Assembly: GCF_048593235.1 (NCBI RefSeq)
Contig: NC_133619.1
Span: 146,210,454-146,274,453, forward strand
Length of the DNA: 64,000 bases
From: Sminthopsis crassicaudata
Lineage: Eukaryota
Direction: 5' to 3'
The position numbers and the translations under genes are program-made. The notes under the pieces are model-generated. The model saw only the letters and a program-made list of their open reading frames with translations, was not told the origin of the DNA and ran no database searches. Shown in pieces: positions 2,561 to 17,678 of the stretch; the stretch's first letter is position 1; the number at the start of each line of letters is the position of its first letter.

Positions 2561-5500
2561 ACTATTGTTGACAGTCACAGAAAATCAATTTCCACATTGT
2601 TCCAAGTCCAAAAATGTGTTCTGCATATTGGTTAGGCATATTAGCCCATCATCTTTTTTGTCTCGAGATGGGCAGAATTCTTCCTCACCTTTGTAATCAT
2701 GATGATTCTGAATAATATCTCACAAATTATTGCCCATAAATTATAGGAAGCAGTTAATTCAGCAAATTCACTCTTGTCTCTTTTTAGCTAAGGAAATGTG
2801 GACTGTTGGCTTCTGATATCACTGATGCTTCATCATTTTCAAAGTTAATGCTTATTACATTTGCTGGCAAGTTGATTTTCTGCTTTACACTTTTCTAAAT
2901 TTTAAAAAGAATATTGATCAGAGGCTTGCAGACACCTGCTTGCTGTTAAGCAAACAGAATGAGCCAAATAAATTGGGGATATTTTCCCACAGTTTGAAGC
3001 AATATTCTTTTGTATAATAAAAACATTCAGTGAATTCTTTGAAAATCCCTGATGTGCCAATGTGTTTGGAATTACCCTGATGTCTAGTTCACTCCAGTTA
3101 ATGTTCTTCCTAATGGGAGCAGGTGGAGAGCTTGGGAAAAGAATAAGTTAAATAGCTGTCTTTATTATTGTTGGAGAATAAATTTGCCCTGCCCTGAAAG
3201 AAGCTTGTCAGCATTAACTAGAGGACCTGTTACAGATCTGTCTCTTAAAGTGAATATTAAGAAATGTTTCTTCACTTTATTCTACATGTACAATAGACAA
3301 CTAATTTTCTCGAAACAATTGAGAATGTGTTTCTCCAGTCCTTGCAAAAACAACATTATGGTTGAAAACTGCTTTTTTTTCCCCAACATAACTTTTCAAT
3401 AGAATTGTTGAGCCTCTTTGGTACTCTTAAAGTTAGATTTAATTGGATCTTGAAATCAGTCGAAAAAATTGCCTTTATTATTATTCAGAAGGAAGGGGCT
3501 TTTCAGCTTCTCCCATCTCTTTCCATTCAACTATATTACTTGAAAAAAAAATTCACATTTTCTTTTTTTGTAGCATAGCTTAAAAAAAAAAAGTGTACCA
3601 TTCAAAAAAACAAACAAACAAACAAACGAACAAAAAAACTGGCCATGCAATTCATTTGTGGGTGGTGGTGGTGGTTATTGTTGTTGTTGTTTTTCATCTA
3701 GAGGAACTAGTATAATATCTAGTTATGCTCACAAGGGAGTTTTGGGTCTCTAAGCTCATAATGTTAAGTTTGCATGGAAATGTAAATTGACTTTTTTTTT
3801 TTTTCTAAATCAAACATACATAGAAAACTGAAAGAAAAGCTTTCTTGAGTAATTTGTTTGGGAAAGAAGAGATTTTAGATTACTTCCTTTTTAAGACTTC
3901 TGTATAGGTTGGTTCATATGTGGCTGTTTTAACTAAGAATTTCTATTGTCAGTTGCTATTTTTCAAGTGATTTATTTTACTAATATGCTCATTGGACAAA
4001 AATAAAAAACAATGCATTACTTTGAATGTTTCCTTCCCCTTACTTCTTAGAAAGAACTCTTTATATGAAATGATTTACATAGGCACCTAAAGTTTTTCCC
4101 AATTTATGTTGTTTCAAGAAGAAAAAAATCCTTGGCTTTTGAGATATACATATATGTATATGTATATATATATATATTATAAAATATATACAAAAAGATA
4201 CATGTAATACAAATATATAATGAAATACACATAATTTCAAATGCATATGTTTATGTCCATGTATATACAGGTATAGATAATCCCTAAACCTACCACCTTA
4301 TCATGGAGGCAAAAGCATAATCTTCATCTTAATAACAAAAACTTCTTGTGCAAAAGGATTTTCCTTTTTTTTTTTTCTTTTATGCCAGTACTTAACACAG
4401 TGCCAGCTGACAAGTGTTTGATTGAATGTTGGGTTAAATTATATTGCATTTTAGGTTTGCAAGTAGGCACTATAGGTATTTTTAGCCCTTTTTTAAGGTG
4501 AGGAAGCTAAATCTCAAAGAGGCTACTTTGTATATCCAAGGTCACAGACTAGGTATTAAAATTCAACAGCTGAATTTAACCTCCAATTCTTGATTACTTT
4601 ATCCTACCACATGAAATACCTGGACTTGGTCTCAAATGGACTCTTCTAGTTCTAAAATTAGTGCTTTTCTATGACATTGACTTGCAACCAATTTTTTTTT
4701 TTTTTTGCTTAAATGAAGGGGATTAAATGCAGTGAATTACAATTGCTATATATTTGTTTTTATTAAATGATGTTCTCATATAGATGTAATACCAAAAATT
4801 TAGTGATGAATATGTCGCTTTTTGTGCAATATTTCTGAATTATTGCAAGTACTTTTTCCAGGAAGACAACTTTGGAAAAGTCAGGGACTTTGTCTACCGA
4901 ATAATCATTTGATACTGAGATATTGCATTTTTCACCTAGCTTTTTAGGTTCACAAGGTATAGTATTTGTTGTTCAACCTCAAAATCTCAAATGTTTCAAC
5001 ACTTCATTAATTATCTAATATTCTTATTGCTAGATCTTATTATCTTTCCTATCATTATATCTTTAAACATTTTAAAATATTTCCCATTTTTCTCCTTAAA
5101 TCTTCCAATAAACTATTCCTTTTCCTCATTTTGTAATCTGCTGTTTTATGCATTCTCCCTCTTTGATTTTTAAAAAATACATAGAGTTGTTATTGTTTTC
5201 TTTCTCTAAGCTTCTGTTTTTCTCTCTTGTTTATTAGGGCACAGATTATGAAATATTGGTCATGGGTTTGATCTAGTTAACTTTGCCCTACTGTGTCACT
5301 TGTTGCTATGGGCAGGTCCTCAGCTATGACCTGTTCATCTTGACAAGAATGTCAAAAGGGAGACTAACTGAGAGTGGATGGCTAGGTCAATACAAATCTA
5401 TCACTACTACTGGGACAAATAACTTTGAGTATATACTCTATTGAAATGTGATCACTAGCATTAGCCATATATACTAAAGCGTCATATCATGGAAATGATT

Positions 5501-13916: not shown

Positions 13917-14517
13917 TACATGTGTGCACTTATTCTTTCTGCTGTATAATATCATCTGCTGAAAATTGCAGATTTTAACAACTTTTTGTTGTGATCATAT
14001 GTGTCTGTCTATGTGTGTGTGTGTACCCACCTGTATAAATCTGCATGTGATCCTTATGGACTTTAATAAGTTATGACATTTTTAACAAATATGATGAGGT
14101 TAAAAATCATAGATTTAAAATTACAGAGCAACCTTAAGAATCTAATTCTTTCATATGTCAAGTAAAAGCACATGTTCTTATATACTTTATTTCAGTAATA
14201 TATCTTATTTCCCCATACCAAAAATTTACAAAATAAAGTGTAAAAGTGAGACTTTTAAGCTATATCCTCTTTCACCACCACAACCCACCCCTCTCCAAAA
14301 AAAAATTATCACCATACTGTTCTTAGGAAAACTAGGTACAAAGAAAACATGGATGTCCTTGATTCTCCATTTCTCAATTCTCAACAGAGATCACAAGAAG
14401 AAACTTACAGGAACAGATATCAAAAATCCTTAGTCATAATCTCATTGGGAGGAATGATATTTCTTATTGGATTCTTTATTTTAGAATTTGCTTCTACTAG
14501 CCACATTCATGGATTCT

Positions 14518-14824
14518 TGTAAAGGGCTAGAACTGAGTAAATGCACTTGGATAATGGAGCACATGAGACTAATTGCCAATTGGACAATTCTCTATTGACA
14601 TGTTTGAAGGTTGACCCTCCCCAACTGACTTGATTGGTGGGACAAAGAAGGGGAAGTGACTTGTGTGGGTGGAGTAGGAGGAGGAAATTGAGGCATTTCT
14701 CCTGTAGGTGGAGAGAGAGGAAGGTAGTATGAAGATTGCTAGATTTAATCCCCCAAAAGACCAAGAATAAAGGTTTTTGGTGATCCTGACTTCCGCTGAT
14801 TTCTAAGAAGACAGAGTTCCAGCA
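14518..14824 (+). mobile_element. ERV 5' LTR (betaretrovirus-like/ERV2), 307 bp
   Basis: Starts TGTAAAGGG and ends CCAGCA (TG...CA). AATAAA at 14766-14771. Immediately followed by a PBS. Its U3 is repeated in inverted orientation at 15410-15647. Confidence 0.92.
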
Positions 14825-14826
14825 TT

Positions 14827-14844
14827 TGGTGCCCAATGTGGGGC
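14827..14844 (+). promoter_or_regulatory. Primer-binding site for tRNA-Lys(1,2)
   Basis: TGGTGCCCAATGTGGGGC, 2 nt after the LTR end. It equals the Lys1,2 PBS TGGCGCCCAACGTGGGGC (MPMV/SRV type) with both CpGs deaminated to TpG. Confidence 0.9.
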
Positions 14845-14887
14845 AGGCACCCTACCTCTACTGAAGTCTTCTGGTGACCAGGAGATT

Positions 14888-14895
14888 AGGTGAGT
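14888..14895 (+). promoter_or_regulatory. Retroviral major splice donor in the leader
   Basis: AG|GTGAGT consensus located between the PBS and the gag ATG, the expected position. Confidence 0.6.
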
Positions 14896-14960
14896 ATTCT
14901 AATAGACAAATAAGGAACTTAGCTTGTTAAGGGCTAAACCAGCAATCTCTTATAGCTGAA

Positions 14961-15170
14961 ATGGGGCAGATGTTAGCTAAAAACATTCCCTCGACCTTGG
15001 CCGACTCAGCCCTGACTTCAACCCCAGATCCAGCTTCAACCCCAGCTCCAGCCCCACCCAGGAGTGGTGCTATAGAGAGTATAATTAAGATAATTGAGGA
15101 GCAGAGTTTACTTGTAACCTGGGTACAGATCGATAAACTCTTGGGCACATTAAAACACACACCCTCTTGA
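14961..15170 (+). pseudogene. gag: Truncated gag 5' end (matrix N-terminus); fused to antisense 28S at ~15158-15160 and stops at 15170
   Basis: ATG 116 nt after the PBS. MGQ myristoylation-type start, Pro-rich stretch, then IIKIIEEQSLLVTWVQIDKLLGTLKHT resembling betaretroviral MA helices. Viral homology ends at ~15160. Confidence 0.8.
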
Positions 15171-15356
15171 ACTCTTTCTTCAAAGTTCTTTTCAATTTTC
15201 CCTTACGGTACTTGTTGATTATCAGTCTCGTGCCGATATTTAGCCTTAGATGGAGTTTACCACCCACTTTGGGCTGCATTCCCAAGCAACAAGACTCTGA
15301 GAAGACCCAGTCCCGGCGCACCAGGGGCCGCTACCGGCCTCACACCGTCCACGGGC
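15158..15356 (-). rRNA. 28S: 28S rRNA fragment (5' domain, roughly nt 220-415), non-functional, inside the ERV chimera
   Basis: Minus strand reads GCCCGTGGACGGTGTGAGGCCGGTAGCGG...GGTGGTAAACTCCATCTAAGGCTAAATA...AACAAGTACCGTAAGGGAAA...GAACTTTGAAG...GAGTTCAAGAGGGTGTG. About 15 mismatches in 199 nt versus vertebrate 28S as recalled, mostly C>T/G>A. Confidence 0.93.
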
Positions 15357-15374
15357 ATCTCTCAATGGTTTCAC
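15357..15374 (-). rRNA. 28S: Short second 28S piece (the sequence that follows the long piece in 28S)
   Basis: GTGAAACCATTGAGAGAT versus 28S GTGAAACCGTTAAGAGGT, 15/18 matches. It is short, so less certain. Confidence 0.6.
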
Positions 15375-15414
15375 TTAGCTGGCCCTATGTACTTAGACAT
15401 GCATGGCTTAATCT
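15368..15414 (-). rRNA. 18S: 18S rRNA 5' fragment (about nt 40-86), non-functional
   Basis: AGATTAAGCCATGCATGTCTAAGTACATAGGGCCAGCTAAGTGAAAC. The first 26 nt match the universal 18S 5' motif exactly; about 40/47 overall versus recalled human 18S. Confidence 0.88.
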
Positions 15415-15647
15415 AGCAATCTCCACACCTCCTTCCTCTTTCTCCACTGCCAGAAGAAATGCCCCAATTTTCTCCTCCTACTCCACCCACACAAGTCACT
15501 TCCCCTACTTTGTCCCACTAATCAAGTCAGCACAGAATAGTTGGGGAGGTTCAACCTTCAAACATGTTAATAGAGAGTTGTCCAATTGGCAATTAGTCTC
15601 ATGTGCTCCATTATCCAAGTGCATTTACTCAGTTCTAGCCCTTTACA
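15410..15647 (-). mobile_element. Inverted U3 part of a 3' LTR of the same ERV family (R/U5 missing)
   Basis: Reverse complement of 14518-14745: first 70 bp identical, 16 substitutions and one 10-bp indel in the rest. The ORF track shows the same peptide SWGGSTFKHVNRELSNWQLVSCAPLSKCIYSVLALY on opposite strands. Confidence 0.93.
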
Positions 15648-15668
15648 TCTCCCGCTTTCTTTTGTTTT
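15648..15668 (-). promoter_or_regulatory. Polypurine tract (PPT)
   Basis: Minus strand AAAACAAAAGAAAGCGGGAGA directly abuts TGTAAAGGG of the inverted LTR. Confidence 0.85.
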
Positions 15669-16088
15669 AAAACACAGGTGGTCATGCCATCCCTGACTTC
15701 TCAGGAAGGGAGATGAAAAGCACTAAAGGGGAGTGGGGATTTGCTAGAATGTTTCTGGGTTGAAGGGTCTTATTAGAGACAAGTTTGCACAAACCCATCA
15801 ACATGGGAGTTATTACACAAGCACATAGCAATAACGCAGAGGCTATTAGTGATGACTCTCCCCATAGCCAGTGCAGGCTCGATGAGGTGTAACAAGCATG
15901 AATTGTACATGCAAGTAGTGATATAACAAACAATATAAATCAACACAGTTTTGTAAAAGATTTCCAGAAGTCCTAGAAAGAGGGTATGTAAACATCAGTC
16001 ACACACATATGCCTTCTTCAGCAACCAAGAGATAGTCCAAAACCAATCTATTGTCCATTGCTTCATGTGTTAGGGAATCCAATGATTC
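15669..16088 (-). pseudogene. env: ERV 3' internal region with an env TM immunosuppressive-domain remnant
   Basis: 16082 to 15999 on the minus strand translates LDSLTHEAMDNRLVLDYLLVAEEGICV*, matching the gamma-type TM ISD motif (L.NR..LD.LL...GG.C). Followed by non-coding sequence up to the PPT. Confidence 0.75.
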
Positions 16089-17678
16089 TTCTTATTGGAA
16101 TTGACTTTTCTTTGAATTGGCCTCTCTGCCATTACTCTTGGAGTTATACTAATGATTCTTATAGAAGAAATGGAGTAGTTGAGACCTTTAAGAGTTGATC
16201 AAAATACAACCCAAGACATGTTGCAGGATAGAGACCAAATATTCTCCAGGCCACAAGAGAATAACCATAGCCTCTAGCAAGATTTAAGCTTTTTTGTATT
16301 AAAATTCCAAGTTCTTTCTGGCAGGCATAGTGTCTTCTATTTTGATATTAAGATAGCTCAATAGCTGCATTTTCTAAGGAAAATTGTCAAAGTGGATTAG
16401 CACCCTACAGATACACCTACAACACTTGTAAACCCTAAGCATTCTGACCATGTGAATATGCAATCTACCTAGATTCTCTGCCCCCCACATCCCTTGTTTA
16501 TGAATTATAAACATTTCTCTTTTGTAGTTAGATCAATGTAGATATTTTTTCCTTAATGCCACCATTAGAAAATAAGCTCTTTTTGAACAGAAACCAGAAA
16601 TGTTTTCTAAAACATTCACTGGCTAACATACTACTTCATGCACAATGGACAATAAATACATTTTTTTCACTGAGTACCTGGCACAGGTTCCTTGGCTCTC
16701 TGAGAATTCCTAACAAATAAGAACAATTGGAAGAAGTTTTAGCAGCATATGAAACATTTTCTAAGAAAATCCAGCACGTTTTCTATACAATCCATGTTTT
16801 ATTCATTGCTATTCCTGTTAGAAATACTACATTTCTAGTATTTTCATAATTAATGCTATTGACCTTATGCTTGAATTTAAAAAGTGAAAATTGAGGGGAA
16901 AGTTTGGAGGAAAGGAGAAGTAGATAAAAGATCAAAATCAAACCCAAAAAGATTGTGAATCATGTCAACATCAGTATTAAGAGATGGGCTACTAAGAAAT
17001 CATTTGAGCAATCCCTTCTCTGGAAAGTAGAAGGAAGGAGAAGATAAAATAGGCAAAGGACAAGATGGATAGACATCATTGCTACAGATTTGAGAGACTT
17101 AAGAGTGAATGCAGATCTGACTCTTTAGAGAATAGCATAATCAAGAGAGAAAAAACTAGCAGTCAGTCACCCTGAGCACAGTGTGTATTTGGCAGGAGTA
17201 CACTTATAATGACAAAACAAACCTTAATTTGGTATCTTAAAACACCCACTCATTTGCTCCTTGTATTTAAAAGCAATCCTTTGCAAGTACTTATTTTTAA
17301 AAGTCTGAATGTCTATGTGAATCACTTTTGAGAATACTACACAACTTTATATCATAAACTGATTATATGAATTTATTTTCTATGCATTAACTGGAAAATG
17401 TGAGTATTGACAGGAAGATATTTCAATTCCATTCCACCAATGATTGATTAATAGCCTGCTGTGTTCAAGCCACTATGTTAGGTGTTGAGGTTAACAAAGT
17501 ATCTTCCTCACAGTAGTACTGTAGAATAGAGAGTAAATAGGTTATCACTTCCATTTTGCAAAGGATAAATTCAGCTCAGATAAAATTAAATATCTTACCT
17601 GCAATTCCATAGCTGATAAGTATGGGAATCAAACCCAAGTCTTCCCATTCTGTCTAACAAGGCACACTACTGTGTTAC

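Follow-up and report, generated by a model that had tools for sequence, protein, structure and literature searches.

A review (PMC4997597) covers non-homologous recombination in retroviruses and their patch repair with co-packaged host RNA. As at the locus described here, the accessible part of that review reports host RNA that bridges viral joints by short microhomology, together with an integrase-type duplication. The host RNAs it names are 7SL, VL30, 5S and mRNA, and not fragments of 28S or 18S rRNA. The present locus is unlike these cases in that its patch consists of apparently cleaved rRNA with a recurrent blunt back-joint, its LTR arms are inverted, and dozens of such loci are fixed in the germline.

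CircRNA-derived pseudogenes (Dong et al. 2016, PMC4897178) likewise have a non-colinear joint in genomic DNA, no poly(A) and LTR-rich flanks. In the available text of that paper, they derive from spliceosomal back-splices of exons and their mechanism is left open, whereas the joint considered here lies within rRNA at cleavage-type ends and the path of a retroviral reverse transcriptase (RT) appears readable base by base. Chimeric insertions of 28S and LINE-1 (L1) are also composed of recurrent RNA fragments that were fused and retro-copied but, according to the available portion of the preprint (bioRxiv 2025.02.02.635956), they are L1-driven, colinear and taken from another region of 28S (~3636-4115). 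No description of permuted rRNA captured by an endogenous retrovirus (ERV) was found in the open papers searched. The U6/L1 chimeras ligated by RtcB are a further case of fused and retro-copied RNA; they are L1-driven and, like the 28S/LINE-1 insertions, raise the question of ligation versus template switching that also arises here.

Cyclic-phosphate sequencing in HeLa cells placed AG409 and GU432 at the head of the most frequent 28S ends, both independent of RNase L; the accessible part of that work reports cleavage only, with no re-joining or retro-copying (PMC4005677). RTCB is described, in what is available of a preprint, as resealing endonucleolytic rRNA breaks within ribosomes (bioRxiv 10.64898/2026.05.26.727988), and HIV-1 RT, in the accessible part of another paper, as clamping a 2-nt overhang onto the 3' end of a template in vitro (PMC3035444). 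The locus analysed here lies in a stretch of 64,000 nt from the marsupial Sminthopsis crassicaudata (GCF_048593235.1, NC_133619.1, positions 146,210,454-146,274,453 of the forward strand), which is referred to as the window; positions given without a locus name are those of the window.

Structure and boundaries of the insertion

A single insertion occupies positions 14518-16086 and is bounded by the 6-bp duplication GATTCT (left copy 14512-14517, right copy 16084-16089, both on the plus strand). Read on the plus strand, it comprises an LTR, a primer site, a leader with a gag-like frame, antisense rRNA, antisense U3, and an antisense polypurine tract (PPT) with ~420 nt of 3' internal ERV sequence. 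The LTR (14518-14824, plus strand) is complete, with TG...CA termini and an integrase-type end. The primer-binding site (14827-14844, plus strand) is perfectly complementary to the 3'-terminal 18 nt of a tRNA-Lys(CTT) copy present at another locus (L057). It is followed by the ERV leader and the 5' end of the gag-like frame (14845-15161, plus strand), which has its ATG at 14961, starts with MG and runs for 66 codons before the joint. The putative designation as gag is based on its position and the MG start; a Pfam search with this piece returned no match at the cut-off.

The pieces that follow are all on the minus strand. They are 28S rRNA 221-419 in host numbering (15158-15356; 186/199 to host rDNA, Rfam LSU E 6e-25), a blunt back-joint of 28S U434 to G221 (15356-15357), 28S 417-434 (15357-15374; 16/18 to host, the start being ambiguous over 417-424), 18S 40-86 (15368-15414; 41/47 to host, with GTGAAAC and AGATT microhomologies at its borders), and the first 238 nt of the 3' LTR (U3; 15410-15647), inverted with respect to the left LTR. 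The last piece (15648-16086) contains the PPT and 3' internal ERV sequence, is without an LTR terminus, and shares GAT with the target duplication. A search of the whole window against Rfam at the gathering score gave no match.

A related, uninterrupted copy of the surrounding repeat was present in a 1688-nt contig (runs X1 and X2), which has both flanks with one GATTCT, and one contig of X7 passes from the left flank straight into the right flank. As the uninterrupted repeat carries a single GATTCT, the window element has a 6-bp duplication. The element has a true LTR terminus on one side only; on its opposite side, repair made use of a 3-nt homology. The normal provirus layout with direct LTRs is absent, the arms being inverted, and viral sequence flanks the host-RNA piece on both sides (the gag arm and the U3/PPT arm). 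There was no duplication of 7-20 bp and no poly(A) around the rRNA piece, and its flanks are non-adjacent parts of the ERV. The left junction is covered by contigs from two studies (X1, X2); none of the listed contigs bridges the right junction. CpG decay affects 8 of 17 sites in the long 28S piece, which marks the insertion as old and present in the genome, as opposed to a chimera from library preparation or assembly. This decay, the contigs across the left junction, and the recurrence of the joint described below ruled out a chimera confined to this locus or an artefact of assembly.

The ERV family of the window is large, with 2514 and 4181 first-look candidates in two genome searches. The two U3 arms (14518-14587 and 15578-15647) are identical over their first 70 nt but agree at only ~88% of positions beyond these, with a 10-nt deletion in the left arm; gene conversion or a different template history is possible. 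An assignment of the two arms to different subfamilies was not achieved.

Ribosomal RNA pieces and their junctions

The genome's own rDNA served as the rRNA reference (L048 at G000:C5; 18S with 1693 bits, 5.8S, and 28S to ~nt 2750). This best unit (L048/L161, G000:C5 ~308.48 Mb) stops at 28S ~nt 2750 and runs into an ERV LTR. A second 18S copy (listed with L050) stops in ITS1, and no complete 45S unit was seen in the assembly.

The initial annotation had described the 28S segment as circularly permuted, with an 18-nt piece lying upstream of its natural predecessor. Alignment to the host rDNA bore this out, placing 28S 417-434 before 221-419, with 18S 40-86 next to the shorter piece. The 18-nt piece matches 28S 417-434 at 16 of 18 positions, its next-best placement within the rDNA unit reaching 13/18, and it is not contiguous with 18S in the host rDNA. 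Both microhomologies noted earlier, GTGAAAC at the 18S/28S joint (7 nt) and AGATT at the U3/18S joint (5 nt), persist with the host rRNA sequence and support the proposed template switching by RT across rRNA fragments. The 434/221 joint within 28S, at which none had been seen, has 0 nt of homology on the host reference. At the gag/28S joint, the CAC that had been reported is present and forms part of a larger match: four exact bases (CACG) are shared in related ERV copies and are CpG-decayed in the window, and on the side of the rRNA that was retained 10 of 12 bases match in related ERV copies.

Gag RNA and 28S 395-419 are predicted to form a duplex of -19.7 to -20.0 kcal/mol, an energy equalled by 6/1033 and 9/1322 windows in two ERV copies. 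This asymmetric complementarity to gag suggests that 28S RNA annealed to the viral RNA and may have primed on it. A second predicted duplex, between 28S 417-432 and the 5' end of 5.8S, has -25.6 kcal/mol. Positions 411 and 434 flank the 28S/5.8S helix, and 434 adjoins the 5.8S 5' end, a joint that is found in L055.

Recurrence of the 434-to-221 joint

The back-joint had initially been taken as a one-off event. This proved incorrect, as the same joint recurs in independent loci and its ends appear to match cyclic-phosphate cleavage sites. A genome search with the window piece yielded 50 matches from the best 40 of 747 candidates; BLAST end points at 125 and 323 were left out, since any colinear 28S copy gives them. 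A search for the junction pattern returned five hits (the window, L051, L052, L053 and one non-rRNA hit with a mismatch), and a control pattern returned one. The joint is exact in four loci (the window, L051, L052 and L053) and one base longer in L144.

These five loci lie on four contigs, their ERV breakpoints differ, and the only substitutions in common are of the CpG type in 10/10 pairs. Given the different breakpoints and the lack of common non-CpG substitutions, the five loci were read as independent captures. A single amplified master copy was ruled out on the same pairwise comparison. Three further loci (L106, L114, L115) look like segmental duplicates of a single insertion; the 45-locus count given below includes them, and L106 and L115 were left out of the one-turn analysis, as were the weak loci L149 and L150. 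Six pattern hits without rRNA (L148, L154-156, L158, L159) were removed before the counts.

Other back-joints and 28S ends

Additional back-joints connect 434 to 28S nt 1 (L051, L054), 433 to the 5.8S 5' end in a blunt joint (L055), 434 to 191 with 3 nt of homology (L056), 411/412 to 199 (L059), 411 to 221 (L060), 411 to 122 (L061), 411 to 203 (L062, L143), 414 to ~204 (L151) and 217 to 1 (L198). On the host reference, 12 of the 15 back-joints from 28S to 28S have 0 nt of homology, two have 1 nt and one has 3 nt. Extra letters are present only in L151, and no locus was seen with the same joint twice. The acceptors are internal in 12/16 cases and mature 5' ends in 4/16 (28S nt 1 in L051, L054 and L198; 5.8S in L055). 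The rRNA joints sit on mature RNA ends and exclude ITS2.

Within 28S 380-460, the positions 410-412 and 433-436, which are 7 of 81, hold 15/36 segment ends (p 1e-7, for sites picked post hoc). At each of the nine ends at 433-436 (eight BLAST segments and that of the window), the sequence continues with an rRNA 5' end, and in no case with ERV or host DNA. At 411-412, 6/7 ends go on into rRNA and not ERV, the partner in L109 being probably the 28S 3' region, as judged by overlap with L067. Where the copy leaves a 28S 5' end for ERV, the two sequences share 2-6 nt (L055, L058, L192, L202). A homology-free rRNA/ERV joint is present in L061, and L058 has a 1-nt landing on 412 from ERV DNA of opposite polarity. 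The marsupial donors AG411 and GU434 share their dinucleotides and their 23-nt spacing with the human pair AG409 and GU432, and on this basis they would match these cyclic-phosphate ends under a presumed two-base offset in numbering (PMC4005677, accessible part).

Several other arrangements were observed. In L055:4081-4728, a five-piece rRNA patch lies between ERV arms and includes 28S 1-126, 28S 203-433, 5.8S 1-135 and opposite-sense 28S ~2137-2276; its 28S end meets the 5.8S 5' end bluntly across the helix common to both. A second one-turn permutation, from a different part of 28S, is present in L198:2813-2959, where a joint with a 4-nt homology connects 2461-2513 to 2363-2464. In L067:4703-5400 and L109:4296-4433, the 28S end 414 or 411 is joined forward to sequence of the 28S 3' region, skipping most of the molecule; the partner in L067 corresponds to 3016-3153 of the Rfam LSU model. 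In L192:2728-2838 and L202:2784-3060, 28S nt 1 meets one and the same position of the ERV across a shared TGC, by a recurrent microhomology jump or through common ancestry.

Loci with the 18S 5' end had no comparable 18S back-joints. Numerous fragments of the 18S 5' region terminate at nt 186-194 (L209, L210, L213-L215, L217-L219, L230, L231, L234), and their flanks are without an ERV-library hit. They mark a second fixed end in rRNA, and the fragments were probably retro-copied along a different path, for instance by L1.

Extent of copying

RT entry in the window falls at 415-419 and exit at 417-424, so that one monomer of 214 nt was copied, with an overlap that is possibly zero. Entry and exit are within 20 nt of each other in 8/14 permuted loci (0/100,000 permutations), several of the values being hand-adjusted for junction homology and the 14 excluding L055 (5.8S acceptor) and the second L198 unit. 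Under a uniform-exit null, p was 0.004 for 7/13 loci. L198, a later find with a different query, fits the one-turn pattern. The copy extends beyond one monomer in L051, L052, L054 and L060 and falls short of one in L062 and L151. L051 consists of 28S 326-434, 1-434 and 221-271, and L052 of 60-434 and 221-271. To account for the four longer copies, a further switch between homologous sequences or a joint between two molecules has to be assumed.

An RT with RNase H degrades the template behind itself. It therefore cannot go past its entry point on the same molecule, while a second intact molecule sets no such limit, and a copy that stops after about one turn in 8 of the 14 permuted loci points to a single template molecule. 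Folding of 28S 221-434 as a linear and as a circular molecule did not bring the ends together and did not discriminate between the models.

Retroviral context across the genome

ERV-library hits were found within 300 nt in 35/45 loci of 28S domain I, on both sides in 26 of these, and nowhere nearby in 10/45; this count is rough, as the library is a small one of observed copies, hits as short as 23 nt were accepted, and the three likely segmental copies are included. LTR starts (TG...CA) face each other at both outer ends, with exact 6-bp duplications, in L054, L059, L060, L062, L108 and L112, and the flanking duplications match at 5/6 positions in L053 and L146. In L151, the primer site passes directly into 28S. 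The rRNA-ERV loci are products of RT in the virion and not L1 retrocopies dropped into old proviruses.

The tRNA copy mentioned above lies in L057:4743-5010 (G000:C6 ~48.84 Mb), where 28S 221-405 is followed by a complete copy of tRNA-Lys(CTT) and then by an inverted LTR. In this locus, it seems that the plus strand was extended over the full length of the primer tRNA before synthesis jumped to 28S.

Discussion

That the window element is a product of ERV RT, which captured cleaved rRNA at fixed ends, is in our view close to certain. To the fuller account, in which cleaved pieces of 28S were ligated or closed into circles, then packaged and traversed a single time by a retroviral RT bearing RNase H, we assign an even chance; the joint itself is known from genomic DNA, and from the arrangement there we infer cleavage, packaging and the RT path. 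In this sequence of events, cleavage of 28S would occur at a fixed set of exposed sites, mainly 3' of G411 and U434, and produce ends with a cyclic phosphate. An RtcB-type RNA repair ligase would then mis-join a 3' end to a 5' end within the 5.8S/28S domain-I complex and produce circles or chimeric RNAs. The rRNA would be packaged together with viral RNA, probably while paired to its gag region over a predicted 16-bp duplex, from which DNA synthesis may have been primed. Plus-strand synthesis would have proceeded through LTR, primer-binding site and gag, then along 28S from 419 to 221, across the joint, and from 434 to ~420, where the template may have run out at an RNase H gap or a nick. The nascent strand would have been rescued via GTGAAAC onto 18S, and then via AGATT onto viral U3, PPT and 3' RNA. 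At the last step, the LTR end would have been joined by integrase, and a 3-nt match within the target duplication would have served to repair the opposite end. The layout of the window is exactly that expected of a circle with a single opening near 419/420.

A circular or ligated 28S fragment was among the templates originally proposed and is the leading option; an end-to-end jump on the same molecule, which had not been named, is nearly as likely, and we regard it as a tentative but serious alternative. It involves no covalent circle: on reaching the 5' end of a linear 221-434 fragment, RT would have extended its product by one or two bases without template and then clamped onto the 3' end of that nicked molecule, kept close by pairing with 5.8S. 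Such a jump accounts for the one-turn length, for the fixed cleavage ends, and for the indifference to 5'-end chemistry (28S nt 1, 5.8S), and the pairing of 28S 417-432 with the 5.8S 5' end can tether the remainder. Against ligation, 4/16 acceptors are mature 5' ends, expected to carry a 5'-phosphate. Mature rRNA 5' ends normally bear one, and RtcB does not accept it. Also counting against ligation, blunt or 1-nt joints between rRNA and ERV exist here (L061, L058), and the back-joints of L056 (3 nt) and of the second L198 unit (4 nt, one turn) have microhomology. RT clamping on 2 nt is described in the accessible part of the published study (PMC3035444) and would likewise look blunt if untemplated bases, whose addition we presume, feed it. 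RT passage through open-ended structured RNA is named as an alternative to circles in the available text of Dong et al. (PMC4897178).

Set against the same-molecule jump, none of the nine ends at 433-436 is joined to ERV DNA, though such ends should be open landing sites, and the continuation of all nine, and of 6/7 ends at 411-412, into rRNA favours ligation. The exits of rRNA 5' ends into ERV mostly proceed via microhomology (2-6 nt for 28S), whereas 12/15 back-joints are without homology and extra letters are confined to L151. In the window, the 3' remainder of a nicked fragment would be only ~15 nt, which likewise favours a ligated template. Ligation is further favoured by the apparent match of the donors to cyclic-phosphate ends (PMC4005677), together with the resealing of rRNA breaks in ribosomes by RTCB that is described in the available part of the preprint (bioRxiv 10.64898/2026.05.26.727988).

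An RT jump between two separate 28S molecules, or the copying of a linear chimera ligated intermolecularly, is improbable. The excess over one monomer in L051 and L052, the combinatorial pairing of donors and acceptors, and the forward joints of 411 and 414 to 28S 3'-region sequence in L109 and L067 would all be accommodated by two molecules. They give no reason, however, for RT to exit at its entry point, as it did in 8/14 loci including the window, where the permuted copy amounts to 1.0 monomer; the hop between two 28S molecules allowed in the initial annotation is disfavoured at this locus. An L1-mediated retrocopy, or a DNA-repair insertion templated from rDNA into a pre-existing provirus, is very improbable: 28S/L1 chimeras are described in the available portion of the preprint (bioRxiv 2025.02.02.635956) and 10/45 loci have no ERV-library hit nearby, but the rRNA is without a surrounding duplication or poly(A), the window flanks are non-adjacent and inverted ERV parts with the 6-bp duplication bounding the whole element, and the joints sit on mature RNA ends with ITS2 excluded.

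In these loci, the genome records the positions of rRNA breaks and the partners of the broken ends, free of the artefacts of RT in library preparation. The exact joints 434-221, 434-1, 411-203 and 434-5.8S are thereby named as candidate sites at which an RNA repair ligase may mis-join or circularise rRNA in vivo. The donors 411 and 434 suggest that the major human cyclic-phosphate ends of 28S are conserved across therian mammals. The loci also offer a readable route from circular or permuted RNAs to LTR-flanked pseudogenes, a point left open in the available text of the circRNA-pseudogene paper (PMC4897178). If RT instead jumped from end to end, they would still constitute a recurrent class of inverted-LTR, rRNA-bridged integrants and a case of end-to-end jumping by a retroviral RT in vivo.

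The broadest reading, to which we give slightly less than an even chance, is that mammalian cells cut 28S at the conserved sites ~411 and 434 and rejoin the fragments as circles and as cross-links to 5.8S and further rRNA ends, and that a family of marsupial retroviruses packaged the resulting RNAs and repeatedly fixed them in the germline. If true, the loci would provide a fossil map, at nucleotide resolution, of rRNA cleavage and mis-repair in vivo, and the one-turn signature of RNase H could be used to spot circular templates in genomes.
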